From positions 1-64,000 of the forward strand of contig QPGO01000025.1 in the NCBI GenBank assembly GCA_008632985.1: a stretch of 64,000 nucleotides of DNA, read 5' to 3'. The stretch comes from Psammoneis japonica (Eukaryota). Position numbers and translations under genes: made by a program. Shown one piece after another: positions 1-60,410 of this stretch (the first letter of the stretch is position 1; each line of letters opens with the position of its first letter). A model generated the notes under the pieces. It was not told where the DNA came from. It was given only the letters and a program-made list of their open reading frames with translations, and searched no databases.

Positions 1-464
1 AATCATCATCATCAAGACCTTCCCTGATGAGGGCTTTGATTACTCCCTTGCTTAACTTCGTGTTGGTCCTGCGTTTGATACAACAGAACAACAGAGCTTG
101 TTCACAAAAAGCGGTTTCGTGGCTTTATTTTATGTGCGTTTGCTCCCCTAGTCGTCAGTGCCACGTCATCTCAACGAGCGGTGGCGGCGGGCGGCGGGCG
201 CCAATGCGCGTTGAGGCCTGATATCTTCGCGATGTCTGGCGCCCTGCCCGGCGATCGGCTGCAGGGCGCTTTACTGCCCCGGGGCGCGAATGCGCGCTTG
301 TTATCCCGGCGTCTGACTGTGGTGAAATCAGACGTAGGAGTTACGAGCATACGTTAAATCAGTCATGCCTTGAAGCGGTGATGGCGGGTCCGATGACACC
401 AAAACTGCCGCCCTGGTCAGGGGTGCAGCATCTATCCACACCAGGTGGGTGCTTCTGTAGCATC

Positions 465-3400: not shown

Positions 3401-3468
3401 CTCATTTGGTGCAAATGAAAGACAAAGATGCTGCAAAAGCAACAATGTTGCACCACTGATGTCTCATC
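465..3468. other. TpA/CpG-depleted hypermutated block D1 (decayed repeat, family not identified)
   Basis: About 7 TpA in 3 kb by hand count; CA/TG-rich; overlapping Tyr-free, Cys/His/Gln-rich ORFs in all frames. Confidence 0.85.
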
Positions 3469-3681
3469 GGACTAGTCTACTGGCAGTCACCAGAACGTTG
3501 AGAGTGCTTCTAGCTGAAGGGGCAGCAGTCTTGCCCTAGGGCTGCTTTGCCAGTGGATGAGTCGGATGCTTGGTGGGGCGAAAAAGGTGGTGTCTTTGTT
3601 GGGCGCAGTGTCGGTGAATGGTTATTGAGTTGTTGCAGGATTCATACATTCGGTTCCTATGTAAGTAATTCAAGGCTGTTG

Positions 3682-4986: not shown

Positions 4987-5049
4987 TCTTCAACCTCGGT
5001 TTAGTCCAACTAGTCAAATGATACGAGGCTTTCTGGGCGTTCTCCGCCC

Positions 5050-19384: not shown

Positions 19385-19649
19385 GTTTTCGCTCAAGTGT
19401 GCAGCCGATGTATTTTTTTGTTTCGTTTTTTTTGTGTGACGAAACAACCAGATGAGACCAAAAGAGGCACGACTGCAACCATCCCCGCCACGTCACCAGG
19501 CAATTTTATGATTACATTCATGTACGATCATCACATCCCGAGGTGACGTCAGACTCGGAGAAAATAGAAACCCCGCATTTATTTTTGAAATCAACAACCG
19601 TCTTTCTCATGCTTTCCGAAACCAGTCCTAAAAACAACCAATGGATTAG

Positions 19650-21030
19650 TCTCTTTGTTCACAGAGGAAAAGAACAAGAGACAGCAAGCGAAGTGGTCGC
19701 CACGTTGGAGTGGCGACATGGAACATGGGTGTGCAGTGCTTCTGACTTGCTGCTGTGAGGGTGCGCCCCCCAACTCCAAAGTGAGGAGCAGTGGAGGGAG
19801 CTGAGACCAGAACAGGGGCAGTTTCTGGTGTCATGTTGGCATCATCAGTGGTTGCAGCTCTTGCAGTCTTGAAAGCATGAAACACCACAAAGCAACAAAG
19901 GCACCAGCAACCAGCAGCACAGAGTCGCTGCTCTCGAAGAAAAAAGAGGAGAGTCTCTCTCCCGAACCCCCCACATCTCCCAAAGGAGCAACACACCCAT
20001 GGTCACAACTGCCACAGTTATTTTTGGGATGCACAATTCACACACCTGATGGTTGCAAGCACATGTGCCACCAAAAGCCTCAAATTTGAAGCACAGCAGT
20101 TGTGTGCACCAGGCGCGACCCCCACACCTTGAAAACCACACCGGCCCACTGCTGTGAATGGAGCTCACAATCACTGTCATTTTGTGGTCACCTGGCCCAA
20201 ACACAAGAACCAAATGACAAGATGCAAGCACATGAATTTGCCCAATTGTGTCAGAAGTCACACCCAACTCTCTTCCAATGCTCTTCAGCTGCGCCATGTG
20301 GTGCGCAATGCGCAGTCATTTGCAGCAACAGCAACCTGAGAGGGAGAGCAGCTGTCTCTTCTTGTGTCCCTTTGTGTCACACCTAAGACTGAAGCAATCT
20401 TCAGAAACACACTTGTTGCACCAACAATGTGCCCTCTTTGTTTTCAGGATGCTGGGCTTCTCCTCAAACAAAGCCCCTCTCAAGCTCCCAGCCACAGGGG
20501 CAGAGCTGGCGTGTGTGTCTCTTTCCTTGAACAGCCCTCCTCATGCCTTCTCCTCTCCCACCTCCTCTAAAACATCACATTTGGAACACTTCCTCAGTGC
20601 ATCAAGAGGCAGACAATCATCATCACAACAGCAACAAATGCAAGGTTGAGCGTGGCACAATGTGCAGCTGGCTGGGATGTGAGGAAGTGCGACTTTGTGG
20701 CTGCACACATCACCAGTTGTGCCAGATCATTTGAAGACTGCCAAGATCCTCATCACATTGATTGAAGAGGCCTGTGATGAAGATGACACTGACATGAGAT
20801 TCTGTGAGAATGGTGCTGAGCTCTCGAAGCTTTGGTTTGCCAGCAATGACTTTCCAACCAACAGAATCGAAGACCATTCTGGATGCCCTTCTTCTTAAGT
20901 CAACAATTTGACATAAACATGTTTCTGTGCTCGGACACTCATCATAATTAACCTCATGTGTTCATTGAGAAAACGAGACACAGCGGTTCAGCGTGCAATT
21001 CAAGAAGAGAACAAGGCACCTACAAGACAC
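19650..21030. other. TpA/CpG-depleted hypermutated block D3
   Basis: Very few TpA; coding-like remnant near 20720-20898 without Tyr. Confidence 0.8.
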
Positions 21031-28254: not shown

Positions 28255-29729
28255 ATGAAAGTAACCATGTCGAAGCCTCTTCTCATGTACCAGTTAGGAA
28301 CCAACAATTGGCAGCGCGAAGGCGAGTTCGCTCCTGGCTCGGGCATTCTTCACCAAGCTCATCACGGCGCATTCAACGAGATGGAAGGTGTCACGTGCTA
28401 TTCCATGTACCCAAGTCAGAAACAAACCCCTCACGAGGATCCGCTCGTGGAAGTCTTCAAGTTGACCCACCCCATTCCAATCTGTGAATCGGCGTCGCCC
28501 GTCAGCAGCTATCGCTGGCACTCCATGTCGGACGAGGAGTTTGAGGCATACAAGAAACGTCTAGAAGACGCTGTTTATAAGCAAATGGCCGAGGCCGAGG
28601 CCCGTGAAGGAACAACCTTTTCCGTTGCGGTAGCCCACCACACGTTTCTGAACCCTATCGTTCTTCGAAGTGTTCTTAGGAGACGTCATGCGGAGGGCAA
28701 GCCGAAATGTGCTCTTGTCTGCTTTGTCCATGGGACAGGTAAGTGATGATGGGGTCGGGATTCGATTGCTATGAAGCACGTTTATCCATGCGTTGTTGTG
28801 TACTGACATATATATTCTATCTTTCTGCTATAGCTCTCAAAATGTACGTTCACGAGCGCGATCAAGACATTCCTGGAGAGTTCCCGAGTCGCTTCTGGCC
28901 CATGCTCAAGGAATCCAAAGTCTTTGACGACGTGAACGGCGACGGTGTACAGCTGTGCTATGCCATTTCCAAGCAACAAGTGGACGCCTTTAGCGAAATC
29001 TTCCCTTCGTTTCCCCGAGATAACATCAGAATATCGCCGAATGGCATTGACCAAAACGTATTTCACCCGATTGAGGGTGCAACGATTGAGAGCGTCCTTT
29101 CCAAGTTTTCAACCGTTCACTACGAAGGGAGCCCCCGCACGGCTACGCCCATTGGCACGAGTGCCATTAAGCACATTGTGATTATCGTGTCCAAGTTTGC
29201 CGACTGGAAGCGCATTCCTGCGCTCTTGTACGCCGCCTCGTCGTTTGAAAAGGCGCTGCCCGGCACGGCTCTTGTGATTGTGGGAACCGGTCCTCATGAC
29301 GCGCAAAAGAAGCTTCAGGATCTTGCCTATGAAACGCTTGGATTGAAGCAGTGCTACTTCTTGGGACCTCAACCCCAGACGGTGCTTGCAGAGCTCTACA
29401 CAATTGCGTCTGTAGGTGTCTTTCCGAGTTACAAGGAACCCTTTGGGCTGGTCTTTGTCGAGTGCATGAGTACGGGGACACCCGTCATTGGAGCTCGTTC
29501 GGGTGGACCAAAGGACTTTGTCACGGAGGACGTTGGTCATCTTGTTGTGGAAACGGATGATCTTGAGGAGCTTGGAAGGAGGCTCGATGAGCAAGTGCAA
29601 GCCGCCATCAAGGACGATTGGAAAGCGTCTCGCGGCGAAGCTTGCAAGAAGCTTGTAGCTGATCGCTTTAGTGTCATGAAGCAGTGCAAGGAGCTACTGG
29701 ATTTCACGAGGGAGCATCTTGATATTTAG
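28255..29729 (+). CDS. GT4 (group 1) glycosyltransferase; intron 28739-28833
   Basis: VHGT, ISPNGID and FPSYKEPFGLVFVECMSTGTPVI motifs; GTAAGT..TAG intron in frame. Confidence 0.9.
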
Positions 29730-29802
29730 ATTTGATATTTACACTTTTTAGATTACCATGTTTGAAAACTCTTGAATACAACGAACAATACAACATACGC
29801 AA

Positions 29803-30630
29803 CTACATTTCGACACGATCGTCTTCCAACTCTCTTTTTTCGCCCTTGCGCACCGCGTGTCCAGCTGTCGAGAGTCCCAGGTTTGCCAGTAGCTCTCGCA
29901 ACAACGCAGCCCCCTTGATCTCGGCCAACTCGCTTCCGATCGTCTTTTGGAGACGTTGCGGCGAATCATTATCCTGCATTTGAATCATCACTTCTGCGAG
30001 AGTGAATGAGCCAAGGAGCCTGCCTTGGCTGGATACATCTGTCAAAGTGTTCTCTCTCCTACGAATATGCCCAGTTGCAAGGGCATGTAGAGCTTCCGTA
30101 ATGAAGCGTCTTTCTTCATAAAGAGCAAAGTGTCTCAGCTCTGACATGTTTAGGTCAGGTGTCTCGGGGGGCGGAAGATTCATGCCAGCGACGAGTGTGG
30201 CATGGATGGCGGAGCATATCGTCAAGAACTTGTCTTGGTCGTATTTTTCAACCAGTCCTTCATTTTCGTCCACGCAGACGGATGCACATTTTATCCCCTG
30301 ATCGGTATCCGCTGGTTGCCATCCAGCAGATAGCACGATCTTACCCTCCCGATCTTTGTCATCAAGATATGACAAGTGCCGAATGGGATCCTTATTCATG
30401 TTGATCTTCGATCTCTCATGATGAGTGACCCATGAGCCGTCATCCCATGCCGTGTACTCGTGTGAGTCAATCTTCTCGTCACAAACCGGACAATTTGGTG
30501 CAAAGAGGCGATTTTTGCTCACAATTGCATCAATTGTGCAACGAGGGCAAAGACAATGTCCGCACGGTATCAAATGAACCACGTCATGCTTGCCTCGTAA
30601 GAGAGGCCTCTGACATTCTTCACACTTCAT
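29803..30630 (-). CDS. RING-finger-containing hypothetical protein
   Basis: CEEC..PCGHCLCPRC..CPVC. Confidence 0.7.
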   Translation of the reverse strand: MKCEECQRPLLRGKHDVVHLIPCGHCLCPRCTIDAIVSKNRLFAPNCPVCDEKIDSHEYTAWDDGSWVTHHERSKINMNKDPIRHLSYLDDKDREGKIVLSAGWQPADTDQGIKCASVCVDENEGLVEKYDQDKFLTICSAIHATLVAGMNLPPPETPDLNMSELRHFALYEERRFITEALHALATGHIRRRENTLTDVSSQGRLLGSFTLAEVMIQMQDNDSPQRLQKTIGSELAEIKGAALLRELLANLGLSTAGHAVRKGEKRELEDDRVEM

Positions 30631-30804
30631 CCCTGTTGTCCTTTTGGGCTATGATAAGTTCTTTGGCGTGTCACCTGTCGCGGTGAGAAAAACTTCAAAC
30701 GAAAACTTGAACCGAGAAAAATGTGAGAAGCCGACTTACCGAAACTATCCATTCCCGAATAATAAGATTCAATTTTCGAAATTTCGGAAGCGGCTATCGG
30801 TGGT

Positions 30805-31442
30805 TGGTGATTGCAGACTTTTTCGTGTCGGTCGGGCATGCAGTCGGGGGGTCGGGCAGTCGGTCCGTCCGAATTTCAGAGTGTGTCCCTCGGATGTCGG
30901 AACGGTGTGTGTTGTTTAGTGCAAATGGATTATTGGATTTGCAGAATGATCATTGAGGACGTTAGAGGTCATGGGGAGACATCCCAAACAATCGACAAAT
31001 TCCCTGCGATGGGTGCGTGGAACTGTTTTTCAGGAGAGCTCGAAAGTGCTGCAAAATTGGGATTGCCGGCGTGCCACATTGACGAATTCATCAAGCTTTG
31101 AATGAAGACAATCATTGACCCCTCAGTGGTCAGTGATTGCAGACTTTTTTGTGTCGGGCAGTCGGGGGGTCGGGCAGTTGGGCAGTCGGGTTGTCCACCC
31201 GCTTTTGAAAGTGTGCCCCTCAGATTTTGGAGAACGGCGTGGGTTGTTTGGTGCAAATGATGTGCTCGGATTTGTGGAACAATCATTGAGGACATCAGAG
31301 GTTGTGGGGACATCCTAAAAATCAGCAAATTCCCTGCGACGGGTGTGTGGCATGGTTTTTCAGGAGAGCTCGAAAGTGCTGTAAAATTGGGGTTGCCAGC
31401 GTGGCATGTTGAAAAATGTGCCCAGCTTTGAACAAAGACAAT
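30805..31442. repeat. Diverged tandem duplication, unit about 320 bp (30805-31112 and 31133-31442)
   Basis: Shared blocks such as gtgattgcagacttttt and tttttcaggagagctcgaaagtgctg. Confidence 0.85.
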
Positions 31443-31464
31443 GTGTCGTGAATTCTACATGAAA

Positions 31465-32470
31465 TGGTCATGTTGGAAAAGATGTGTCAAGCAGTGAGTG
31501 TGTTTGTGCGATGTGCTGTTTTGGCAACAAATTGGAAAAAAGGAGTGTCTGCGCACTTCGCTGCAGCCCCAAAAATGGCATGAGCCATCAAGTGCAATGG
31601 TCATCTGTGTCACCGGTGCGGTGGCCACGCCACTGCTGTGCTCCAGAGTCTACACTGCCGCCATGCATGCAGGGCCCTGCGGCCTCAGCAGCACAGCAGG
31701 GCTCTGTGCATGCAGCACAGGCAATGTGCATGCAATGGCACACACCCACAGCCACAAAGAAACACACGCAAGTGGTCAATGCTCCCCGCAGGCCTGGTTT
31801 GTTGTGAACTGCACACAAAACAGTCACATTGTTGGAAAACACATGTCGAGCAATGAGTGTGTTTGTGCGATGTGCCATTTTGGTGACAAACTGGAAAAAA
31901 AGAGTGTCCGTGCACCTCCCTGCGGCCCTGAAAATGGCGTGAGCCATCAAACACAATGGTCATCTGCATCTCCGGTGTGGTGGCCATGCGCAGCATTGGC
32001 AACACATCATGCAACGGCACACACCCACAAAGAAAGACAAGCAAGTGTTCAATGCTCCCCGCAGGCCTGGTTCTTGTTTGTCCACTGCAGCAATGTTCAC
32101 AAGCTAGACAAGGACCAAACCAATGCAGGCTTGCACTCTCCCAAGAAAACCCAGGCTGGATGGCAAGGGCCAGAGGGCGGGAGAGGTGGGAGCATCAAAG
32201 ACCATCCATTTCGACTTGCTGTTGTTGTCTCAAAAGAACAAGCAAGCTTCATTGAACGGGTGGCTCACATGTTGCTGTGCGTTCAATGGAGTTGGGAATC
32301 TTGCTTGGTGCATTGCTTGAGGCCAGCAGCTGTTGCTGATTTTCTTGTTTGTCCACTGTGCAGCGACATTCACAAGCTGGACAAGGACCAAACCAATGCA
32401 GGAGTGGAGAGGGCTTTGCTGGCACAGGCTTGCACTCTCCCAAGAAAACCCAGAGGCTGGATGGCAAGGG
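31465..32470. repeat. Hypermutated tandemly duplicated repeat units; 32190-32340 is related to 39590-39690 and 39940-39995
   Basis: gagtgtgtttgtgcgatgtgc twice; gacaaggaccaaaccaatgcagg twice; gacttgctgttgttgtctc at 32212 and 39612. Confidence 0.8.
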
Positions 32471-35132
32471 CCTCCAACTCCTCCAAAGGAGGTGCAAGTG
32501 AATTTGGGAGGGAGAGGTGGGACTGGCTGGTGGGCTGTGGCACTCAAGGCACGCAAGGGGTTGCGGGGACATGGTTTTCAGGGAGAAGTACAAAGTTCCC
32601 ACCGGCTGACATGCATTGTGAGAAATTGCGCATGACAGGCTCTGCTTGCATGTGGAGGTGTTGAAGCATTTCATCAGAGCGCCAGCAGCCCAAGAGTCAG
32701 ACAATGTCAGTGTTCACTTGGCACACAGCAACCCCATGGCACCGGTGGCACAAAGGCAGTGCACAGAGACATCTGATGGGTTCAAACTGAGGTTCTGGGG
32801 GCCAAAGACAGTGACGGCAGTGCAGAGGATGGCCGCAATGTCAGCTGGGCTGACAAGGTGCCATGCTCCATCATGAAAGTGTGTGGAGAGGGGGGTGTCC
32901 GGGAGCATGCTGTGGGCGTGCAAATGTAACACTCGACGTGTTGCTGCTTTAACTGGGCAAAGCTGGGGGTGGCCAGAAAGGTCTGGGCTGATGACTTCAC
33001 CGTGCACACCGTTCTTTTGGTTGGTGAATGTGAGGGTGGTGAAGGTGGTGGCTGCAAGCTGTGTGGCTTGTGCTTGGCGCAGATCAAGGCACAAACCACT
33101 GGCGGAGAGAAGGATGTTGACAAGGCAGAAAGGGGTGGTGTTTGAGGGCGTGGCGGTGTGTTTGCCAGGGCACAAAAGGAAGAAAAAGGCCAGAGCAATC
33201 ATGTCAGTGATTGCTTGGGTGCCTGGGTGTTGGCCAAGGGCAGCAGCGGAAAGAATCCAGCACAGGACAGCGACTCTGTCTGGCAGAGGATCTTGCTTCT
33301 TGCAGCAACGGATTTGTTGGGCAAGTTGGAAATCCAAACCGCCTTGTGGTGTGAGGCGCGGGTCCGGGGACCCCATTGCAGCAAACGTTTGGCCAATGGA
33401 CTGCAGGGCATCTTCAGCAATGTGTCAACAGACGGGATTGCCATGTGGTGTGAGGATGCTGATGCGGTGTCAGTGGAGGTAGACCTGGATGCAGAGGATG
33501 GGATTGATGGCCACAGTGTCGCAGAAGTCGGTCCATTTTTCCCAATGGGCGTTGGCGGCAGAGGCACATGAAGTGGTGATGGTGAGAGTGACTGCTTGTT
33601 GTGCAGCACAGAGATCATGAAGGAACGCAGTTGGGTGGCAGGGTCCACAAGTGCCGAGGTTTGCTCTGAGGATGACAAGAGTTAAAGTGGTGCAAAAACT
33701 CAGTGTCAGTGAGGGATTGCAAGCATGAGGCATCATCATCAGCGGTGTTCTTGAGAGGGCCCGGCAGGCAGTCATGTGGGGTGAGGTGCCAGTGGAAACA
33801 TTGGCGGCAAACTTGGGGACACAAAAGGGGGGCACGGACTTTGGTGGCAGTTGAGGAACCTTTGCATTGCCAAAACATGGTGTGAAAGCTGTTGGTCCAT
33901 TGGAGGTGGGTGCGTTCCCACATGTCAAAGCATTTGGAGGCTGCACGTGTTTGCAGCATGATTGGTGTTGGTCATGGAGCAGGTGGGATGTTTGCAGGTG
34001 ATGAGATCAGATGTGACGGCTTTGGGGAAGGGCATTTGCCATGATGTTGGACCTGTTGATGTTTGACAGTGTGCATGTGCCAAAGGACTGAACTTGAGTT
34101 TAGTTGCCCATGGCACGGCATCTGCGCTGGTGGGCAGGAGCACTCCTCCTGCTCCATGCCTGGCGGCATCATGGCATCCATGCACAGTGGGTTCAAGTGG
34201 GGCTGGTTCTTGGATGTGAGCTGGATGATGTTTGACAGTGGCACAGAGGTCTCTGAAGTCATCCATGATTGTGTGGAAGGTGGGTGTGAGACTCACACAG
34301 GAGTCAGGTGTGGCGCAGTGCAGCAGCTCTTGGAGTTCCGAAAACAAGCCACGCGATCCGGGGATTGCTGTTGACAGTGAGCTCACTGAGAAGGTGGTGG
34401 CAGTTGGAAGCGGTTGCTTGATGATCACGCTGGCAGGGGAAGTCCTGATGCAGTGCAGTGTGGAGTCATGCAAGGCAACGGTCGGTGAGGCGCAGTGTCA
34501 TGGCATGGGTGTTGATGAGCCAGCCCAGCACCTCTTTTTGTGTTGACCAAGTTGTGTTGCCTTTGCACAATTTCTTTGCTGAGATGGGTTCTTGACATTG
34601 TTTGGTGTCATTGGCATCAAGCAGTCAAAATGTGTTGTTGAGGGCTGTCATGATGGTTTGCAGAACATTGAGCCGGGAGCACTGTGTTCCTTGTGAGGCA
34701 CCAATGCAGTCATCTGCACACATGTCAACACATTGTAGACATCGGCAGCATGTGTGATGCAGGTGTGGGTCCAGCGTGGCTGGCAAGGGCATGGCCAGTG
34801 TTGAATCTCTGAGTGGTGCAGTGCGCAATGGCAGGCAACGGCTGTTTGCCACCTGTTCCAGGCGGTGGGGCAGTGCCTGAAAGTTGTGCTGCTGGAGTCA
34901 GTTGGCCAAGTTGGTGCCAGTCTTGGCTGCAACACAAAATGCTGGTGGCGAGTTTTTTCCAGCCCATGGGCAGCCTGGCTGGCATTGCTGCTGAGGGTGG
35001 TCCACCAGGCAGCAATGGAAATGCAACAGCCAATGTTGGTGCTCGGTCCAGTGCAACGGAGAGATGACAAAAACCATCGGACATGTCCTTCTTGAGCAAG
35101 CAGATGCGTCCTTTGGATGGGTCAGTCAAAAG

Positions 35133-35577
35133 TGCAACACACAGCTGCTGACAAGAGTTGATGCATCACGGCGACGTGTTGCAGCCTTTAAATGTCACAA
35201 AGGGCGTGACAAAATGACCTTTTGTCTGCATGCATGCTGCATTGTGAATTCACAGCGGAGTGGTTCATCGCAACCATTGGGCAGGAGGCCAGGGGTTCGA
35301 AACCCTGAGTGGGAGTTGTCTGCAGCAACGTTGATCACTGTCGAACGCGTAAAACTCTGTGCAGTTCTGCGTGTTCCTTCGTGCGCACCCACACTGTTCC
35401 GCCAAAACCGTGCAGTGTCAGCACACGTCAGTAAAGAGCCGCATGGACGCGCGATGCATGGGGAGGAGTGCAATGTGCAGCTGCCAATGAGAGTTGATGC
35501 ATCACGGCGACGTGTTGCAGCCTTCAAATGTCACAAAGGGCGTGACAAAATAACCTTTTGTCTGTGTGCATGCTGCA
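35133..35577 (+). mobile_element. Miniature LTR element (TRIM-like): 109-bp LTRs 35133-35241 and 35469-35577, AAAG target duplication, internal tRNA-type A/B boxes
   Basis: TG..CA termini; purine tract GGGGAGGAG before the 3' LTR; removal restores the RT frame LLRCALLTDPSKG. Confidence 0.9.
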
Positions 35578-35971
35578 AAAGGGCACACCGCAAGAGGCGA
35601 TCAAGCACACGTCCAAACTGCATGGCTTTGACTGGGACGTTGGGTTGGGTGGTGTCATTGGCGCCAAAGCAGGTGTGGCCAACAATGGGGCGTGGGTGCT
35701 GACTGCATTGTGGGGCCACACCGATGGGGCCAATGCGCAAGCCTGGTTGATTTTTGACTTCATTGCATGGAACGACAACCCAAAAACCCTTGTCCATGCA
35801 GCCAGCCATGTCTTCTTGTAAGAAATTGATGCACCTGCAGGCGGACTTGTGTGGACCCCTGGCGATGCTGGCGTTGAGTTCCCTCAGCACTCCAGGGTGC
35901 ATTTGCAATGGTGACTGGGATGTCTCGATGCTTGTGGTGGTGAAGCACCTGGCATGCCGGGTGTTTCTTAA

Positions 35972-36573
35972 GGTGGCACGAGACAAAAATTGTGAAAATC
36001 GTTTCTGCGCACATTTTCATTGAAAATCACGGGAAAATCAGGAATCCGTCGTCACACAAAAGCATTGTGTCTCATTGGCAAACCACATGGGTCGGCATGC
36101 GTGTGATTGCGAGTGTGTCACTCAACGGAAATTCCGTTCGGCGATTGCTCATTGTTCATCGCCTCTTTCTCTGCTGTCTCGGAAGGGCCATGAAAGGCAC
36201 TTCCAAGATGAAAACACTTGTGAATTTAAGCATGCAGACACTTTCTACACTGTCTTGGCTTCCTGCCGAGTGAAAGAAAATGCACCTTTTGACACTTTTT
36301 TCCACTCAAATGTCCAATTCAAAAACTCAGGGCAAAAAAACAGGACCTTTTTTTTGCTGACAGGAACATCTCATTGACACAATCTCGAAACTTGCAGTTT
36401 CTTTCCATGGGCAAGTCAAGGAGACACCAGTTGAGGATGCAGGACACTTGGTTGAAGGAAACGCAACATTTGACAGCGTCCTGGGAGAAGCCGAAGTGTG
36501 ACCATCGCTTTGTGTAGAAACGTGCAGAAATCACACCAGAAAAAATTCCAAACAATTTTCATCTCGCACCACC
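35972..36573. mobile_element. Non-autonomous TIR element with TTAA target site and GG..CC ends (Kolobok-like)
   Basis: TIRs of about 22 bp; flanks TTAA (35968-35971) and TCAA (36574-36577); removal restores the frame PMSCIKKHPA. Confidence 0.8.
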
Positions 36574-39230
36574 TCAATGCAGCTCATTGGCCCCAAATCA
36601 CCTTGGCCGCAATGTAGATGCAACAAATGGTTGAGGCCATGTCGACATGATCTGGTGGCATCATGTGCAATCTGCTTGCCCAACTCATCAGTGTTTGCTG
36701 ATGCAGCAATTGCCTGTCCACATTGTCGCTTCGTGGTGCGGTGCTGTTGCTGGCCAAACCTTTCCGCCTGCAGTGGTGGTGGCACAATGGGCTCTTGGTT
36801 CACAGTCCCTGAACTAGAGCCATTGCCAACAACCTGTTTGGTTGTCCAGCACACGTTCGCCCATTCAAACAGATTGTCTTGCTCTTCCTGTGTGTGGCCA
36901 TGATGGTGGTCCACATGGGGCTGCCACAATTGGAGTTGCGTTGGCCCTTTAGATGGCAGGGCAAGCACCGTGAGTTGCCTGGGGCGTTGACAGGCAGGGC
37001 GATGTTGTTGCGTGCACATCGTTGCTTGACGTCCCGTGATTGTGCGTTCGGTCGAGCATGCAGTTCATCAAAGCATGTGTTGCACTGGAGGTTGCGCGCC
37101 AAGCTGTTGTCTCTGGGTGTTCCAGTGGCAGGTGCTGGTGCCGGTGCCTCGCCCAATGTCAAAGTTTGGGGTGGGCGCTGACACAGGTGCAGATGGGGCC
37201 AAGTGCACTGTGTGGGGCAAATTGCAGCCCCAGCACATGGATGGAACCTTTAGTGGCCTCGTGCACTGCTGAGCGGGCTGTTGAATGGCACCTTTTGATC
37301 ACTGCATTCCTGTTGGTGGAACCAGCAAAGAAGTTTGATTTGGGTGCACCATTGAAAATCCACTGTCAGTGAGGGGTGACAAAGCAGTTGCACAGCCAGG
37401 TTGCTGGCGCAAACATTGACATCCCATTGGAGGTCCCCAAGGTGGCACATTGTTGGATGCTGTGCTCTGAGCAGTGCTGACAGCAAGACTTGCAATCCAT
37501 CCAATTGATGTTGGGTGGCTTGGATTGTCATCACAACCTTGGTGTCATCTGGCACCTCCAACACCATGGTGTCAGCCAAGAAAGGTGCTCCATCTCCGCT
37601 GTGCATTTGTTGGTGCAGCACATTGCAATGGTCAATTTGGGCAGCTTGCTGTGGCATGGTGAGTCCAAACATGAAAGGACCAAGTCCTTGAGACAGCTCA
37701 TCTTGATCATGCCCGGCAAAGGTGAGCCACACAAGCTTGGTGACGAGATTGACAGTGACTGGTGCTTCAGTGTAAACACCTTGAGCTTGGTGCTGCTTGT
37801 CTGCAGTGTTTTGTGCCATTGCAATGTGCCCGGTTTTCAGTGCGGTGGCCAATCATGTCCACATCGGTGGCAGTTGTTGTTCCTGGTGCACTTGGCAGAC
37901 ACACATTGACTTTGGCACTCCATGTGCACCATGGAATTGCTGCTGCAGGACCTTCCCCCTTTCACTTGCTTGCTGCCTGGCGACAGTGTCTAAACGCTGC
38001 TGGCATTGCTTGGCATTGAGGTTGTCAATGGCATTGATGATGGGCTGCCACTGTTGCGTGATTGGATGACCTTGTCCAGTGCAGTTTGGGAAGTCCCTTT
38101 GCACCTTGCGTTCAAAGCATTGGACCAGCAAGGCATTCTGTGGTTGGGGCGGACTTGGCCAATTCTGCAGCATGGTGGATGCATGGGCATCTTGTTGTTG
38201 CGCAGCCATTGCTGCTGCCTTTAAGAAGTCCAACAGTGGACGGCACTCATCAACTTGATTGGCTGCTGTGGCCGCTCCATGGATTGCCGCAAAAGCTTGC
38301 TTGGGTCCAATGGCGTTTGCAACAATGGGCTCACACAAGCAAATGGCACGTGCATGGACATGCGTGTGCAAACCTTGACAGCAATGGGGGTCTGAGCTGT
38401 GACGGCCGGATGTGGCCCTTCCGGTGTGGCAGTGATTGCTGCCAGCATGGCATCGTCAGTCAATGCGTGCACACCATTTGGTGCTGAGTTTATCAGCAGA
38501 TCCAGAAACTCTGCGATTTGGCACTGGTTGCATGCTGGGTCTCCAACGACTCCACAAACGCAGCCATCCCCCCCATGGTTGTGGCTGTCCCACTGCTGCA
38601 GCAGGACAGGTGGAGATCCAGTGTGACACTTGCATGTGTCTGGTGTGGTTGGATGGTCCTGGCACTCAGCAGTGCATGACAACAGGCATGAGAACATCAT
38701 GCTCAGAGGCTGCTGTGTGCTGTCAAACAAAGCTGCCAGGTTGCATTGGGATTGACCGTTTGCGATGGCAGCAAAGTCCAACATGGCTTCTGCACAGCTG
38801 CGATGATGCAGATCTAAATCGGCAGTTGCACAAAAATCAGCACAGGTGTGCAGGATGCATGGCGGCTGGTGGTTTCCTGGAGGCAGCACTTGTCCAGCGG
38901 CGCCCGCCTGAGGCGGCGGTGCCAGCTGCACTTGTGGTTGAGCGGCTGCTCCTTGTTGCACTGCTGGCGGTCCTTGTGGGGCGCTTGCAGCACGGCGGCA
39001 CTTGCGGTTGTGGCGCACCTGTTGTGCCAGCGGTGCTGGGTGTGCAGGTGGTGGGGGCGCAACACCTTGTGCCGGTGATTGTGCCCCTTGTTGGGGCGGT
39101 TGATCCGCTCCTTGGTTTGACACATTGAAGTGTTGTTCTCATGCGAGTGGACAACAGCGGCGGAGGTGTCGACGCGTTCCAGACGTAGGTGGGAATCCGT
39201 GTGACATTGGGCCCGTAGACTTCTACGTGC

Positions 39231-39548: not shown

Positions 39549-39799
39549 CCACCTAGGGCTGGAACGCGTCTGTCCTGCGTCAAACCAAGGGCATCAAAGA
39601 CTGTCCATTTAGACTTGCTGTTGTTGTCTCGAAAGAACAAGCGAGCTTCGTCGGATGGGTGGCTCATGCATTGCTGTGCATCAATGGCAATCTTTCGTGC
39701 CATGCAGTCATTGTAAAAAGACATGTAGAAATTGTGCAGATCAGTGCCAAGAGCAAACAATCATTTGTCTGTCCATCCACCCTCAGTGAATTTTAATTC

Positions 39800-39899
39800 T
39801 GCGAAAAATGGACTTGACTGCAAACTGATCAGGCTCATTTCAGAACAACGCATTTGCAGAAATACGCCTGATCAGTCAGCAGTCAAGTCCATTTTTGCA
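39800..39899. repeat. Inverted repeat with arms of about 42 bp and a 17-nt spacer
   Basis: aaaaatggacttgactgc..actgatcaggc pairs with gcctgatcagt..gcagtcaagtccattttt. Confidence 0.9.
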
Positions 39900-41691: not shown

Positions 41692-42883
41692 TATGTCTCT
41701 TATTCTACCAAATCCAATCCAATTCATATGATTGTGTCCTCAAGGACAAAAATTGATCATCATCCTTATCATCTTGTTGCGACTTTGCCAATACGTCCAC
41801 CCTCGTGGGAGGGAAAATGGAATTCTGGAATCCTTTTCTGTGATTAATTAATAAATTTATGATCAGGCCCTTCTGCCGACCTGGCTGGATGTCATTGTTT
41901 CACTTAAAATTTTGGGGCCACTTCGAGTTAACAGGTCAAGACTCAAAGACTTCTACGCACTTGTAGTTATCAGGCTGCCTGCCTCTTCTCACTTTTGCCA
42001 TTGCTTTTCAATATATTAAATAATGTCAGAACGGAATATGTACACTAAAGTTTAGGAATGCACTGTTAGTGACAGCACATCCGCCGTTAAGCTTTGACAT
42101 GCATTATTTGATTTGCAGCAGAAAGTGAGCGTTCCAGCTCTCGGTGGGAGAATCCGCATTCTAGTCTCCTATTTCTCCTTTTCTGAGGCCTCCGAGTCAA
42201 GTTCAGTTTCGCTGCTCTTGGCCTGCACTCCAGCAGCTATGTTAGAAGCAAGGGCCGGGCTTCTTGTTCAGGAAAGCGAATGGTTCAATGTTCTCAAAGC
42301 TGTGACCATTTCGACCACTGCCTCAGCATTCAGGATGGACTTCCCTTCATGGATACACTGCCGATTGAAGACAGCGACCTCAAACGCTACCCCATTGTCA
42401 ATTTGACCAGCCCCTGAGGCTGTGTTCCCCAGTGCGTTGATGACGAGCGCACCATTGAAGATCTCCTCCGTGATTCACCGCCTGCCAATGATTGCGTGCA
42501 GACCATGTGGGATTCTTGGGTTTTGCTCCTTGTGCTTCCATCACTGAACGAGTTGCTTCCCAGTTTCATGTCATGATTGAGCGCGTTGAAGATCAATTGG
42601 ATCACACCACCCTCCATTGCCAGAATGGCTTGCTTGATGATCATGCTCCATGGTTTTTCCTCCAGCTTCTCCATCTCCAGCTTTCTGCACCGGCGACCAA
42701 TGTGTGGTTCAGCAACTCAGTTCCTTCACCCCCGTCCCTCTTGTCCAGGGTTAGAAGTCAAAGCAAGATCTCAACTTCTTGGATCAGGTTCATCCCATGG
42801 TTGGTTTTATCCCCGAGGAATGGGTCAAGTCCACCTTCAAGCATGCTGTCCAACTTGGGCACCTCCATCACAACACTGCTTTC

Positions 42884-43914
42884 TGGGATGGGCAAGTTGT
42901 GATGGGGTCAGGATTTGATTGCTGTGAAGCATGAAAGTCCAAGCATTGTTGTGAACTGGGATTTGATTGCATTGTTGTGAACCAATGGACATGACACTCT
43001 GTTGTTCTGAAACAGCTCTCAAGATGTGCGTTCACGAGTGTGAGTGAAGACATCCCCCAAGAGTTCCCGAGTTGCTTCTGGCCCATGCTCAAGGAATCCA
43101 AAGTCTTTGATGATGTGAGTGGCAATGGTGTGCAGCTGTGCCATGCCATTTCCAAGCAACAAGTGGATGCTTTTGGCAAAATCTTCCCTTGTTTCCCTGT
43201 GATGACATCAGAACAATTTGCCGAATGGCGTTGACCAAAACAAATTGAGGGTGCAACAATTGAGAGTGTCCTTTCCCAAGTTTTAATGGTTCGCCACAAA
43301 GGGAGCCTCAAAAATGGCTGCTCCCATTGACACAAGTGCCGTTGAGCTCAAATTTTGGTTGTTGTGTCCAAGTTTGCTGTCTGGAAAAGGTGCATCCCTG
43401 CACTGTGGTGGACCACCTTGTTGTTTGGAAAGGAGCTGCCTGGCATGGCTCTTGTGATTGGGGGAGCCAGTCCCCATGATGCACAAAAGAAGCTTCAGGA
43501 CCTTGCACATGAGGCATTGAAAACCAAAGCAGCACCACTTCTTGGGACCTCAACCCAGGACGGTGCTTGCAGAGCTCTGCACAATTGCATCTGCAGGTGT
43601 CTTTCTGAGTCACAAGGAACCCTTTGGGCTGGTCTTTGTCAAGTGCATGAGCGCAGGGACCCCCGTCATTGGAGCTTGCTCAGGTGGGCCAAAGGACTCA
43701 GTCACGGGGGGATGTCAACTGTCTTGTTGAGGAAATGGATGATCCTGAGGAGCTTGGAAGGAGGCTCAACAAGCAAGTGCAATCTGCCATCAAGGATGAT
43801 GGGAAAGTGGTGTCTCATGGCGAAGCTTGCAAGAAGCTTGCAGCCAATCTCTTCAGTGTCATGAAGCAGCACACAGAGCTGCTGAATTTTGTGAGGGAGC
43901 ATCTTGACATTTAG
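42884..43914 (+). pseudogene. Hypermutated copy of the GT4 glycosyltransferase intron and exon 2
   Basis: Colinear with 28731-29729; frameshifts; Tyr to Cys/His changes (ELYT to ELCT, PSYKE to LSHKE). Confidence 0.95.
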
Positions 43915-43984
43915 ATTTGACACAAACACTTTTTAGACCACCATGTTTCCAGTGCTCTTGAGTGCAAATGAACAAAACAACATG

Positions 43985-44844
43985 TGCAACTGCATCCCGA
44001 CATCCTCTTCTTCCAACTCTCTCTTCTCACCCTTGCGTGCCATGCTCCCAGCAGTTGAGAGTCCCAGGTTTGCCAGAATCTCTTGCGACAACACAGCACC
44101 CTTAATCTTAGACAACTTGCTTCCAATGGTTTTTGGAGATGTTGTGGCAAACAAGTGTCCTGAACTCAAATCGTCACCTCTGCGAGAGTGAAGGAGCCAA
44201 GGAGCATCCCTTGGCTTGTGACACATCTGTCGCAGCACTCTCTCTCCTGTGAGTGTGCCCAGTTGCAAGTGCATGCAGAGCTTTTGCAATGAAGCACCCA
44301 TCTTCATAAAGAGCAAAGTGTCTCAGCTCTGACACGTTTGGGTCTGGTGGTGTGGGGGGTGGGCGGATGAATCACACCGGCAATGAGTGCAGCGTGGGTG
44401 GTGGTGGAGCATGTCACCAACAACTTGTCTTGGTCACATGTTTCAACTGGTCCTTCAGTTTTGTCCGTGTAGATGGTTGAACACTTTCTTTTGGCATGAT
44501 TGGTGTCTGCTGGTTGCCATCCAGCAGATGGTGGCAAGATTTTGCCCTCCCAGCCAATCTTTGTCAACAAGGTGTGACAAGTGCCGAGTGGGATCCTTTT
44601 TCACATTGATCTTTGATCTCTTGTGATGAGCAACCCAAGAGCCTTCATCCCATTCTGTGCATTTGTGTGACAACTCAATCTTCTCATCACAAACCGGACT
44701 GTTTGGTGCAAAGAATCGATTTTTGTTTGCATTTGCACCAGCAGCAGTTGTGCAACGAGGACAAAGACAATGTCCACAAGGTGTCAAATGAACCACGTCA
44801 TGTTTGCCTTGTAAGAGAGGCCTCTGACATTCTTCACACTTCAT
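43985..44844 (-). pseudogene. Hypermutated copy of the RING-finger gene at 29803-30630
   Basis: MKCEECQRPLLQGKHDVVHL matches the intact gene; frameshifted; HEYT to HKCT. Confidence 0.95.
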
Positions 44845-45111
44845 TCCGGTTGTTCTTTTGGGTCATGATAAGTTCTCTGGATTGTCACCATGTCGCGGTA
44901 AAGAAAAACTTCAAACAAAAACTTTGAACCGAACAGGATTTAATTTTCGAAATTTTGGAAGTTTGTGCTGTACGCCGACCGTTTTTGCACGGATTTCCCG
45001 GCACAAAAAATGAAGGGAGCGAGATGCCGCGATGGCATTCCGAGTTCCTTGGCGAACACAGCGTCGATCATTTGCAGGCTACGCTCCCAACTCAGAAAAG
45101 AAGTAGCAACA

Positions 45112-56789: not shown

Positions 56790-59700
56790 CGATGGTGACC
56801 AAAAATTTGGCAATCTGCAGCAAGTTCAGCCCCGTCCACCCCAGCCATTTTTTGACTCTCATCCATCGTGTGCACAACAGGGGCCAGCTGGCAGCAGCAG
56901 CCATGCTCTGTGTGTTTTGCACACCCCATGCTTGCTGGGAGACACCTCAGAGGTGGCTCCGCTTTTGCGCTCCTCTTCTTCCTCCACGAGCTCCCCCAAG
57001 CCCAGAGGGGCAGAGTTTGGCCCGCGCTGCTGTGTTTCTTGAAAGTCTCTTTTCCTTTTCTTCGCTGGGTGCTGCTCTGCTTTGCACTGCATTTTTGGCC
57101 ATCAAGGCAGCCAGAGAGCTTTTTTCATTCCTCCTTCTCTTTCAAAACTTGTTTTTTGTGCCACCGCCAGCTGCCACTCTTTTTGTGGCGGAGCCCAAAG
57201 TGCCTGCCTGCTGCAAAGGGTGGCAAGGAGAGCAAGAAGAAAGTGATGCAGCCAGCCTGTCTGCGCTCTTTTTGTCAGCTGGCAATTTTTCAATGCAGCC
57301 AAGAAGGGACAAGAGAGCCACATCCATGCTGAGAGCAGAAAAGCGGGGCAGAGCCATGTCAGCAGCACGAGAGAAAGCGGGAAAACAAGCACAAAAGAGA
57401 GGCGAGAGAGAAATGAAGTCTCGAGAGGAAGGAGCCGCAGATGAAGGTGGGCAAAGAGGGTGTCAGAAGATGGCTTTTTACCCATTCCACCCTTCCACCA
57501 AGGTCCTCACTTGTGCTGTGTGGCAAGCCGCTCTTTTTGTCACCAACTTCCCCCCTGCAGATGCCAGCACGGCCTGCAGGTGCTGCAACAGTCACTCAGT
57601 CTGATGAGGAGTCCATGAACCGCGTGGGAACATTCTGTGTGCTGCCACACGCGATGCTGCGTGGCCACTTTGGTGGTCCATCATTGAAACACTGGGCCCC
57701 CTCAGTGGTCTGTGCCACTCTGGCTGACAAGTTTGTCCAGACCCCGCCGGTCTTCTTTCCACCCCCCCCCAAAATGCCCTGCCAATGTTGGCGTTCAACT
57801 CATCCCCAGTTCCACACCACCAGAAGCCCCATCCACCCACCAATTTTTGGCCATTGACATCAATGTGCCGACAGCTCTGGCTCCCGCGCCTCCTGTGCAC
57901 CTGGCTTGCCTGCCCCTGAAAAGAACCTGTTGAACAAGGCTCACCTCAGCAGTGCATGGGACAAGCTCCTTAGCTGAGCCTGACAAAATTAAGGCAAGTG
58001 GCAAGAATTCAAACAATGACTCCTTGCTGCTGTCTAAATGGCAGATGAGTCTCCACTCAGAGACCGTCACAGGAGCCGAAAGACGTGCAAGTCGGTGTGA
58101 TGGGCTGCTGTCATCGTTCTTGTGAGCCTTGTGGCTCGAAAGCAAACCACATCATGCGCGAACGCGCGGAACTGAAGCACACAAAACTGTGCACGGCAAA
58201 CTAAACAGCACGCGACATTTCACGCGCACCTGAGTCCTGCTCAAATCCTGTCACTCCCCAGTTTGCTTGAGGAGTCACAGAAACAGATTCGACTTCGGAT
58301 GGAATGAAGTTCCAAAACATGAGGGGATGGAGAAGGTTCCAGATTTGGGAGCAACCCCAATGCTTGCTGAGAATGTCAGCAGGGTTGCGGGAGCCTTCGA
58401 TGAAGTGGAGCTCAAGGCAGCCAGAGGCAATCGCCTCGCGCACACGATGGAATGAGAGAGCGGTGTGTCGCTTGTGCAACTTGGAGTGCAGGATGGTGGC
58501 ACTGTCCACAACTGACTTGTTGTCACCGAACATGCAACTGATGTCACGGATCGGGATGCCGAGGTGACACAGGGTGATGCGCAGGTCAACAATCTGCTCA
58601 ACACAAGTCCTTGCGGCAACAAATTCAGACACCCGCAGGTCGCAGTCTCCACGGTGGCTTGCTTCTTAGAGAACCAATCAGCCGGGCATTTGTTGAGGAA
58701 GTGGAGCATTCCCATGACAGAGCATCCGGTGAGCATGCAATGGTGCAAGTTTGCATTGACGCAGTGGGTGGCAGTGACGAACTTGCCAAGGGGCGGTGGA
58801 GCGTCCTTCGGGATCATCTCTTCTGCTTCGCCGCACACAGAGTGCATCCACTCACAGGCCGGAGCAGGGAGATCCGAATGGTCGGGCTCTTCTGTGCGAA
58901 CGCGGAGAGCGCCGTGTCGCATCTTGGAGAGGTGCCCACAGATGCATTTGGCACGATCCAAGTGGCCTTGACGGGGCGCAGCTCGGAAGCCAGACAGTGA
59001 CATGACGGCCGTGGCAATGTCAATTCGACTGAGAGACACTGCCCATTGGAGGGAGCCAACAAGAGACTGGAGCTGTTGAATGCCATCGGGTTCCAGCAGT
59101 TTGGAAGTGTCCAGTTCGGGGTGGTCACCCTTTTCCAGAGGGGACAGGACGTTGGTGGCAGGTTTCTCCCCAAACAGTCATGTGCAGCTGTCGACCATGC
59201 GTTCGATGCACTTGCGCGGAGACAGACACAAGGTGCCGTCAGGATCCTGGGAGAAGTCGCAGCCTGGGTGGAACTCAATCGGTCCCGCACCCTTGAGCTT
59301 GAACTTGTGCTTCTCCATGAGAGCATCAACGAAAGGCTGAGGATCCTTCATGGCAATGGCGAGGTCATCCACATGAACGGCAACACATTCACAGTGGTCG
59401 CCATTCCTGTGCACCCAAATGTCGGGTTCGGAGCGGCAGGGGAAGAAACCTTCAGCTCGCAGGCAGTCGGCGAAGCACTCGTGCCAGTGGAGGCCGGAGC
59501 TGCGCAGTCCACATGGGGCCTTGTAGATGACAAGAATGTGGCCTTCGAGTTTGCCAAATTCGGGTCCGCGTCATCTGCGCGCCATTCCAACGTTGTTGAT
59601 GCCATCAATCAAGCAGGGCTGCTCCTCTTGCCTCTCCTTTTCACCTTCGACCACCTGGGCAGTGTTGGGGGCACCACTTCCACATCTTCTTCTTTGGCAT

Positions 59701-60410
59701 CTCCACCACAACACCCCCCTCTGTCCCTCCTGTCCCTCCCAAACTGCCTTGGGCTGATCCATCTTCCCTCTCCAACTCCCAAGCTTCCTTCTCTGCCCTC
59801 AAACACTCACTCCCAGCTCCCTCTGACTTCCTTGCCCACTCGCCCAAAACAATGCCTCCTGGAAACAAGTGTCAGCAGACCGCTTTGGCACCTCCCATCA
59901 CACCACAACCCCTCAACCCTCAACTTCGGGCCTCACAAATCCTCAGCCTCAACTTCGGCGTTGCTCTCTCCAACCACCTTTCTGCATGCCAAGCCCTCCG
60001 CCTTCTCTGACACCCAACCATGCATCAATGAAGTGCAACTTGTTTGAGGCTTGATCGACATTCAGTGGCATTTTTTCAAACAGCTCGTGATTTTGCAATC
60101 TTCTCGCACTTCGCCCGCGTCATTTTGCGGCGCCTCTGAGCACCCCAAACACCCATGTGTGTGTCTGGCCCCCATCAGGGCTGTCAGACCTTTGCATGAA
60201 CTGTGCTTGTCAACCTTCAAATGCCAATTGTCGCATCAGGTGCGGTTGTGATTTTGGGCGAACCGCTGTTTTTCACCAAAATCGGGCTGTCAATGACAGA
60301 CAAGCCGCGGCTTTCCAGGAAAGGCCAAGAACTGGCGTTTGACTGGCCACAGACATGTCTGCTGGTGCGGTCGTTGTTCTGGAGATCCCGAACCTTCATG
60401 TTCATTGTGC
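56790..60410. other. TpA-depleted hypermutated block D6
   Basis: About 7 TpA in 3.6 kb; includes the Copia remnant. Confidence 0.9.
58254..59565 (-). mobile_element. Truncated Ty1/Copia RT-RNase H with polypurine tract; 3' LTR starts at 58253 and runs left (extent uncertain)
   Basis: KAPCGLRSSG, VHVDDL, WFSKKQATVETAT, MFGDNKSVV, FHRVREAIA, NPADILSK; GGGGAG then TG. Confidence 0.93.

Follow-up and report, generated by a model that had tools for sequence, protein, structure and literature searches.

CA/TG differences between the terminal repeats of a TRIM-like retroelement point to a TpA-directed mutation process in transposon-derived DNA of the diatom Psammoneis japonica

The window, by which we mean the whole stretch of DNA analysed here, comprises positions 1 to 64,000 of the forward strand (64,000 nucleotides, nt) of contig QPGO01000025.1 from the assembly GCA_008632985.1 of the diatom Psammoneis japonica. 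At 35133 to 35577 it carries a 445-bp element of which the two long terminal repeats (LTRs) differ from each other only at CA, TG and TA dinucleotides, and this pair of repeats, together with the TpA-poor DNA in which the element lies, is the subject of this report. The parts of the element are:

35129..35132, plus strand: target-site duplication, left copy, AAAG
35133..35241, plus strand: 5' LTR of the TRIM-like element, a direct repeat of 109 bp with TG...CA ends
35242..35468, plus strand: internal domain of 227 bp, non-coding and free of open reading frames (ORFs) by sequence inspection
35469..35577, plus strand: 3' LTR, with 12 base differences from the 5' LTR
35578..35581, plus strand: target-site duplication, right copy, AAAG

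The direct repeats 35133–35241 and 35469–35577 are the sole two-copy repeat family of the region; they align without gaps at a spacing of 336 bp. A run of nine purines (35460–35468) directly adjoins the T of the 3' LTR. The AAAG target duplication consists of four bases only and would be found by chance about once in 256 cases. Just before 35132/35133 and just behind 35241 the similarity to contigs from other family copies breaks off (flank agreement 0.44–0.49), and because these positions have unrelated flanks in the other copies, they are the true LTR ends in a dispersed family. The family is dispersed and of very high copy number. An earlier reading of the locus, made from the letters alone (the sequence-only reading), had taken the two repeats for LTRs of one element, and the TG...CA ends, the polypurine run, the AAAG duplication and the family boundaries bear this out.

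Elements of the TRIM (terminal-repeat retrotransposon in miniature) and Cassandra type lack an ORF, occur in high copy number and have, besides LTRs of about 100 bp, a polypurine tract and a short duplication of the target. The element in the window is like them in all these respects, its ORF-free interior measuring about 230 bp, and is a non-autonomous, TRIM-like LTR retroelement. No tRNA-complementary primer-binding site was recognised beside its 5' LTR: the few bases next to 35241 contain no TGG-type site, and a possible one begins to be seen only some 18 bp into the interior, a host tRNA set for comparison being lacking. As in Cassandra, there may be a promoter motif of the RNA polymerase III type, since an A-box-like (35252–35262) and a B-box-like (35294–35304) sequence stand in sense orientation about 30 bp apart and resemble the consensus motifs. 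The boxes are without support from ARAGORN, which found no tRNA in the element, or from Rfam, which found none there at E values up to 10; the sole Rfam match on 35100–35620 was a chance CRISPR repeat (E 4.1), and over the window there was no match at the gathering score.

In the 111-nt alignment of the two repeats (89% identity; trimmed to TG...CA each repeat is 109 bp long) 12 of the 111 columns differ. They are grouped in seven pyrimidine-purine (YR) sites, all of them CA, TG or TA:

35138–39 CA versus 35474–75 TG: swap
35140–41 CA versus 35476–77 TG: swap
35149–50 TG versus 35485–86 CA: swap
35152–53 CA versus 35488–89 TG: swap
35229–30 CA versus 35565–66 TG: swap
35189 T (TA) versus 35525 C (CA): single-hit site
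35216 G (TG) versus 35552 A (TA): single-hit site

Outside the 12 changed columns there is no difference in 99 columns. The five CA/TG swaps, the one TA/CA and the one TG/TA site that the sequence-only reading had reported across 109 bp are thus reproduced exactly, and so are its four CpGs kept in both LTRs: the dinucleotide table of the pair has CG/CG 4, CG/TG 0 and CG/CA 0, hence no half-decayed CpG, against TG/CA 5, TA/TG 1, TA/CA 1 and TA/TA 0. When 12 transitions were thrown at random onto the first repeat, five or more CA/TG swaps occurred in none of 200,000 trials, the maximum being four, in seven trials. Inversion of a dinucleotide-bearing segment as the source of the swaps was rejected; TG-A-CA and CA-A-TG are not reverse complements of each other. 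If all seven sites were formerly TA, 12 of the 14 TA copies at these sites have been converted, and five swaps, two single hits and no shared TA agree with a single probability of conversion of about 0.86 for every TA copy.

Swaps of this kind could also come about if the sites were methylated CpG at the time of insertion and each LTR then lost them on one strand or the other. Diatom transposons are indeed CpG-methylated, loss of DNMT5a being reported to deplete methylation and to de-repress young elements in Phaeodactylum (PMC9998398). In the LTR pair, however, all four CpGs are intact in both repeats, and one decay rate cannot give five double losses, no single losses and four double survivals. 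Moreover, the two sites that were hit only once are TA/CA and TG/TA and not CG paired with something else. Composition points the same way: the ratio of observed to expected dinucleotides (o/e) in the element is 0.82 for CG but 0.16 for TA, and with CpG near-intact and TA mostly gone, TA is a likelier ancestor of the swaps than CG. Further evidence on both sides of this question comes from the surroundings of the element, from a decayed gene copy and from other members of the family.

Over the whole window the o/e ratios are 0.42 for TA, 1.34 for CA, 1.33 for TG and 0.76 for CG. When the share of CG plus TA among the four YR dinucleotides is followed in 400-bp windows, its distribution is bimodal, and the edges between the two states are sharper than 400 bp. 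The TpA-erased blocks, for which strand has no meaning, are:

401..3400: TA o/e 0.05, CG o/e 0.14
5001..7200: TA o/e 0.03, CG o/e 0.17
19601..20600: TA o/e 0.08, CG o/e 0.25
30801..39000: block hosting the element, TA o/e 0.07, CG o/e 0.44
42201..44600: TA o/e 0.09, CG o/e 0.30
56801..60200: block with much CpG left, TA o/e 0.04, CG o/e 0.53

Together the six blocks make up 20,200 bp (20.2 of 64 kb) and hold 73 TA (o/e: TA 0.06, CG 0.36, TG 1.72, CA 1.80), whereas the other 43,800 bp hold 1650 TA (o/e: TA 0.56, CG 0.97); the GC content is 0.52 in the blocks versus 0.48 outside. Besides the TRIM-like element, they contain a fragment of a Copia element, an unclassified ORF of mobile origin and a pseudogene. 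All six blocks are alike in their low TA, and CG varies about four-fold between them. Uniform TA loss combined with a four-fold spread in CG means that the loss of TA is separate from that of CpG and more complete. The flanks of the element, which are multi-copy in the genome as judged by contig comparison, have TA o/e 0.05–0.07 and CG o/e 0.37–0.42, so that by both measures the element is younger than its host block.

Other repeat pairs within the TA-poor blocks show the same picture as the LTRs in that swaps are the commonest double difference (14, 6 and 7). Half-decayed CpGs are found alongside (15 with 7 swaps; 8 with 8 swaps), which is what methylated CpG as the starting state would predict. 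A control pair from a block of normal composition (51534–51678 and 51981–52131) keeps 6 of 6 TA and 8 of 8 CG and has no swap. The two members of this pair align over 145 bp with 95% identity at a distance of 447 bp and may belong to another small terminal-repeat element.

It could be argued that nothing is targeted at all, TpA>TpG/CpA being a genome-wide neutral bias while genes keep their TA by purifying selection. All the TA-poor blocks are indeed non-functional DNA (transposon fragments and a pseudogene), and with an o/e of 0.56 TA is mildly under-represented also in the rest of the window. But under a genome-wide bias the synonymous and intergenic TA would be gone, and 1650 TA remain in the normal 43.8 kb; the composition is bimodal with edges under 400 bp, and the repeat pair from a normal block keeps every one of its TA. 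In addition, TA loss nears saturation ahead of background change, as seen in the LTRs, which have no other difference, and in the Copia fragment described below, which keeps 87% of its conserved non-Tyr codons. We consider the chance that a bias without targeting accounts for these data to be practically negligible.

The direction of change can be read from a segment that occurs twice in the window:

28789..30715, plus strand: intact copy A, of normal composition, comprising a GT1 glycosyltransferase gene and a portion of a RING-like ORF
42968..44932, plus strand: decayed copy B of the GT1/RING segment, inside the TpA-erased block 42201–44600

By self-comparison of the window the two copies are 80% identical over 1983 columns. 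Where copy A has 58 TA, copy B has 5 TA, 1 CG, 24 TG and 20 CA; where copy A has 115 CG, copy B has 1 TA, 19 CG, 51 TG and 31 CA. The total counts fall from 58 to 9 for TA and from 115 to 31 for CG, and the changes in the reverse sense are few: TG to TA 1, CA to TA 2, TG to CG 1 and CA to CG 9. Both losses are specific in context. A>G changes from copy A to copy B are found at 46 of 114 TAN versus 77 of 829 other contexts, C>T changes at 86 of 228 NCG versus 48 of 692 other contexts. GC-biased gene conversion as the sole cause was rejected, because the loss of CpG runs in the opposite direction and it is at TpA specifically that A>G changes are in excess. With 82 of the 115 CG turned into TG or CA, the pair also documents that CpG decay is strong in the very blocks in which TA has been lost, which has to be counted in favour of a CpG origin of the LTR swaps.

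Eight homologs of the GT1 gene (43–84% identity; only this gene, not the RING-like ORF, was tested) served as outgroups. At 91 codons with a non-synonymous difference they back copy A 66 times and copy B 6 times, with 19 ties. Where TA>TG/CA is the sole difference (15 codons) the outgroups stand for copy A in 11 cases and against it in 2, with 2 ties; where the sole difference is CG>TG/CA (20 codons) they do so in 17 and 0 cases, with 3 ties. In copy B the TG and CA products alternate randomly (runs z of 0.06 for TA and 1.29 for CG); strand-coordinated conversion runs, as a processive single-strand deaminase would leave them, are thus absent from this polarised pair.

As the duplicated segment takes in portions of two ORFs of opposite orientation, it is no retrocopy. 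A decayed copy of a cellular gene that has been hit on both strands (24 TG and 20 CA from TA) excludes RNA editing and reverse-transcriptase error, and the LTRs of one element could not differ if the changes had been made earlier; the sequence-only reading was therefore right to place the mutation on chromosomal DNA and on both strands. Since the functional copy A is untouched, duplication alone is not the targeting signal. The similarity between A and B ends near 42884–42968 and the block begins near 42300, so the decayed copy stops short of the left edge of the block.

Two decayed protein-coding regions of mobile elements provide a second and a third test of direction:

58240..59567, minus strand: truncated Copia (RVT_2) reverse transcriptase/RNase H fragment in block 56801–60200
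32556..33658, minus strand: decayed ORF of a family of about 380 amino acids (aa) without Pfam domain, in the host block of the element, placed by tblastn

The homologs of the Copia fragment carry PF07727 and are 62–69% identical to it. At 301 positions at least 6 of 8 homologs agree. None of the 16 conserved Tyr codons among these is kept (11 are now Cys, TGY; 4 His, CAY; 1 Leu), versus 249 of the 285 other conserved codons (87%). Together with the 99 unchanged columns of the LTR pair this corroborates the earlier proposal that the mutation is much faster than background substitution. Even the catalytic YVDD now reads HVDD. Of the conserved Arg codons 14 of 20 are kept, with changes from R to C, H or Q.

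The ORF in the host block belongs to a family with 136 homologs at E ≤ 0.001, of which the 120 matches listed show 35–64% identity. Here 0 of 6 conserved Tyr are kept (4 His, 2 Cys) versus 155 of 225 other conserved codons. Over both ORFs all 22 conserved Tyr codons are lost, 21 of them to TGY or CAY (Cys 13, His 8). CpG decay has struck this ORF as well: only 8 of its 28 conserved Arg are kept, and 16 of the 28 became C, H, Q or stop, a further sign that methylated CpG has been decaying in this block. The family is abundant in environmental and transcriptome data, and by eye the protein may be likened to the catalytic half of a tyrosine recombinase.

Relatives of these elements elsewhere have ordinary TA. 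In 80 related Copia loci from metagenomes TA o/e ranges from 0.33 to 1.06 (median 0.645) and lies below 0.3 in none; it should be noted that one of the two patterns by which the loci were found required Tyr or Phe, so that mutated copies may be under-sampled. Likewise, the 120 homolog proteins contain 2.9–6.1% Tyr, none of them being Tyr-poor. Seven of the Copia loci (L043, L022, L050, L036, L017, L032 and L053) have CpG o/e of 0.14–0.26 at TA o/e of 0.41–0.53 and look like products of methylation decay without the TpA process. CpG-depleted relatives with ordinary TA mean that CpG decay alone does not remove TA.

One consequence of the loss of TAA and TAG is that long spurious ORFs overlap on both strands of the TA-poor blocks. 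Between 30500 and 40200 there are 54 ORFs of at least 90 aa in 9.7 kb, on both strands and overlapping, and their translations, which have no Tyr, abound in Cys, His, Gln and Trp. None of the 14 ORFs of the 32.7–39.3 kb block that were searched against Pfam gave a match below E 0.05. Gene finders would over-call ORFs in such blocks, and the Tyr-less proteins predicted there escape Pfam.

Other copies of the TRIM-like family could be followed in a public sequencing run in which 92% of the words sampled from 33000–38000 are present; its contigs were compared with 34000–37000 at 80% likeness. Over 35111–35514 the summed contig depth is 45,000–147,000 (maximum 147,152; 1318 contigs placed), versus about 60–350 in the left and 58–1,340 in the right flank, and this summed depth is not a copy number. 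Variable places of the family number 302, with transitions at 223, mainly at YR sites; 40 of the 302 are listed, 13 of them inside the element. At four sites where the window has TG or CA other copies show TA, namely at 35383 (71% of depth), 35386 (42%), 35429 (52%) and 35442 (7%), and at none of the 13 listed places within the element does the family have CG where the window has TG or CA. The converse is found at 35350, where the window has TA and other copies have CA. Window TG stands opposite family CA at 35159–60, a difference that recurs at 35495–96 in the other LTR, and at 35278–79. Only at 35370–71 does CpG decay show itself, the window having CG and the family TG (77% of depth) or CA (26%). 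Taking this site and the strong CpG decay of the blocks on the one side, and the intact CpGs of the LTRs and the family TA on the other, we judge it very improbable that the swaps began as methylated CpG.

Contigs of the run match the window with no other letter over 34559–35160, which ties four swap sites of the left LTR to unique flank, and over 35548–36010, which anchors 35552 and 35565–66 of the right LTR. A nanopore-type base-calling artefact at modified bases was dropped as an explanation; contigs at word depths of about 50–65 match the flanks exactly.

The differences between the LTRs might nevertheless have been imported, by unequal recombination, by gene conversion or by errors in assembly or polishing. 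The family is very large and polymorphic mainly at YR sites, and each version of the 5' LTR segment is also present in further contigs. The 16 bp that contain four of the five swaps could correspond to a single conversion tract, and for the inner halves of the LTRs no exact contig is listed. However, the same TpA process would still be needed to create the CA and TG variants in the other copies. Exact contigs confirm both outer junctions in a run containing 92% of the sampled words, and the three differences that fall beyond the 16-bp cluster likewise sit at TA-derived sites. We regard import as unlikely.

Several points weigh against the reading that TA was resolved within these two LTRs, and they should be kept in mind. 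Each swap site is confirmed by an exact contig in one LTR only, the inner halves being unanchored, and short-read polishing or gene conversion may have put variants of other copies there. Both variants of the 5' LTR segment are present elsewhere (loose ends at 35148 and 35473), so that the pattern would look no different if copies that had been mutated before had exchanged sequence. The five swap sites are not among the 40 listed variable places of the family; their ancestral state is deduced and not observed directly, and searches of metagenome, prokaryote-genome and viral contig collections gave no match to other copies of the family. In the polarised gene pair, 2 of the 15 TA-only codons and 6 of all 91 favour the state of copy B, and the dependence of conversion on the next base is there a trend only (TAC 19/36, TAT 14/35, TAG 8/23, TAA 5/20). 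Thymine-directed chemistry would leave the same footprint as deamination of adenine, TpA being self-complementary. Finally, the footprint is known here from the comparison of sequences.

What the three tests of direction and the block structure do establish is a change from TA to TG or CA that affects both strands, is confined to bounded blocks, is faster than background and is independent of CpG decay. The sequence-only reading had left the ancestral state as TA or CG. Of this, the TA>TG/CA direction is now polarised three ways and TA is seen in the family at four sites; for the five swap sites themselves TA is what we infer. All in all we hold it to be probable that ancestral TA in the LTRs was resolved to TG or CA after insertion, by a TpA-targeted process acting on silenced chromosomal DNA.

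The course of events would then be as follows. The TRIM-like element would have inserted into an already silenced, transposon-derived block of the diatom genome, where a targeted process on double-stranded chromosomal DNA would convert TpA either to TpG, by a change in the top strand, or to CpA, by a change in the bottom strand. Conversion would near saturation long before ordinary substitutions build up. If every former TA was resolved on its own in either LTR, and on a random strand, opposite resolution in the two LTRs would yield a CA/TG swap (five sites), a hit in only one LTR would yield TA/CA or TG/TA (two sites), and resolution in the same way in both would leave no visible difference, which is expected for about half of the former TA sites. 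CpG>TpG/CpA decay, presumably from 5-methylcytosine on transposons, would run in parallel and more slowly, having left the CpGs of the LTRs untouched so far. That the process finds its targets via silent chromatin is our surmise.

Of the TA that survive in the blocks, 45% precede A, 31% G, 15% C and 10% T, versus 20%, 21%, 30% and 29% in the related Copia loci (chi-square P about 3e-17, each TA being counted on both strands). Judging from these survivors, a preference of the process for T-A-pyrimidine (T-A-Y) is possible. Bacterial tRNA adenosine deaminase acts in the context U33-A34-C35, and in the substrates of eukaryotic ADAT2/3 an invariant U33 precedes A34. The T-A-pyrimidine preference resembles this context, and the agent may be TadA/ADAT2-like with a T-A-Y preference. 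Deamination of adenine to inosine as the chemistry is a possibility to which we give somewhat less than even weight. No deaminase domain was found among the 36 ORFs of the window that were scanned.

Editing of retroelement RNA or cDNA by ADAR or APOBEC takes place before integration and on one strand, so that both LTRs would share the change. ADAR prefers a 3' G. The footprint is like that of ADAR and APOBEC in being a transition signature of the deaminase type; unlike with ADAR, the 3' neighbour possibly preferred here is a pyrimidine and not G. Pre-integration editing was rejected because the two LTRs are not alike, the changes are found on both strands, and they extend to a gene duplicate that was not retrotransposed. 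As for the other neighbour, ADAR favours a 5' U (bioRxiv 10.64898/2026.01.13.699255, Discussion).

The closest precedent is in the chlorarachniophyte Bigelowiella natans: in its mutation-accumulation lines, two integrated viral regions received 231 of the 302 new single-nucleotide mutations (Mettrop et al., bioRxiv 10.64898/2026.01.13.699255, April 2026). In these regions 210 of 211 and 20 of 20 were A>G or T>C, and all these were at TpA; the rate was about 6e-7 per site per generation, approximately 1000-fold above the rest of the genome (bioRxiv 10.64898/2026.01.13.699255). The same preprint describes clusters across the B. natans genome that are depleted in TpA, enriched in CpA plus TpG and enriched in reverse-transcriptase and DDE domains, and it proposes an ADAT2-like protein as the agent (bioRxiv 10.64898/2026.01.13.699255). 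Its main text makes no mention of diatoms, stramenopiles, retrotransposons, CpG or trinucleotide context (bioRxiv 10.64898/2026.01.13.699255), and in our literature search for TpA loss or hypermutation in diatoms it was the only report found.

Measured against what the preprint describes, the window presents the same signature in another lineage, and the signature itself is no longer unprecedented: in both organisms A>G or T>C at TpA gives TpG or CpA on both strands, far above background, and the process is confined to blocks of foreign or mobile DNA. There are also differences. B. natans is a rhizarian and the host here a diatom, thus a stramenopile. The targets there are giant-virus and virophage inserts, here they are LTR retroelements (Copia and a TRIM-like family), a mobile ORF without classification and a pseudogene copy of cellular genes. 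The erasure is near complete here (TA o/e 0.03–0.09) versus a Rho of 0.45 for a B. natans viral region. CpG decay accompanies it here, and the evidence is comparative and does not consist of new mutations. What the window adds to the B. natans report is a pair of LTRs by which the process can be placed after insertion, and a possible T-A-Y preference.

Repeat-induced point mutation (RIP) of ascomycete fungi changes C to T mainly at CpA and so creates TpA and AT-rich DNA. The process described here is like RIP in its dinucleotide-specific transitions on two strands, its sharp-edged domains of repeats and transposons and the destruction of coding capacity. It is unlike RIP in that TpA is destroyed and GC goes up (TA to CA/TG 44 versus CA to TA 2 and TG to TA 1 in the gene pair), and also in that RIP hits all copies of a duplication, whereas here the functional copy A is untouched. 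With the deamination of 5-methylcytosine at CpG it has in common that a self-complementary dinucleotide goes to TG or CA depending on the strand, and that swaps arise between independently decaying copies. It differs in starting from TA, the decay of CG being slower here and absent from the LTRs of the element.

Even more tentatively than the chemistry, one may think of an old DNA adenine deaminase defence derived from TadA/ADAT2, shared by diatoms and chlorarachniophytes and aimed at silent chromatin, its T-A-Y preference echoing U33-A34. If this were true, retroelements would be disabled by the erasure of every Tyr codon, including that of YxDD, and of every TAA and TAG stop; it would be a "reverse RIP" that makes transposons GC-richer, and LTR pairs would serve as built-in clocks of its rate. 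A comparison of the gene set of this diatom with that of Bigelowiella could name the agent, and if this proved to be a natural deaminase of adenine in chromosomal DNA, it would be of direct interest for base editing.

A near-saturating footprint on retrotransposons and a pseudogene in a diatom would make TpA hypermutation a widespread defence, present in a second major lineage of marine phytoplankton. The LTR pair shows what mutation-accumulation data cannot, namely action after integration that is independent on copies 336 bp apart and outruns other substitutions. In genomes of this kind the dating of insertions by LTR divergence and the annotation of transposons would be badly wrong.

Some further features of the window may be recorded. 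On the plus strand to the left of the element (32800–35133) TG outnumbers CA (317 versus 221) and the GC skew is +0.18 to +0.24, and in the Copia block the bias is reversed (TG 290 versus CA 344), with sense Tyr>Cys (11) exceeding Tyr>His (4); such strand asymmetry of the products could reflect the direction of transcription or replication. The left edge of the large block (30797–32472) carries diverged local duplications in units of about 270–360 bp with many CA/TG swaps and half-decayed CpGs, and a piece of it, 32192–32289, recurs 7.4 kb away at 39591–39687, near the right edge of the block. About 800 bp past the block, in DNA of normal composition, there is a 93-bp palindrome (39804–39896, 83% identical to its own reverse complement).

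Between two TA-poor blocks, 3400–5000 forms a near-normal island with an ORF of 435 aa (3682–4989, minus strand) without Pfam match and a 24-bp tandem repeat at 4382–4427; this may be either a gene or an insertion too young to have been mutated. The single N at 3063 stands in a long C homopolymer and probably reflects uncertainty of the assembly consensus. The genes of the window are long and nearly intron-free, and the named best matches of its kinesin motor are diatom proteins with 47–59% identity, a few non-diatom labels following lower in the list.

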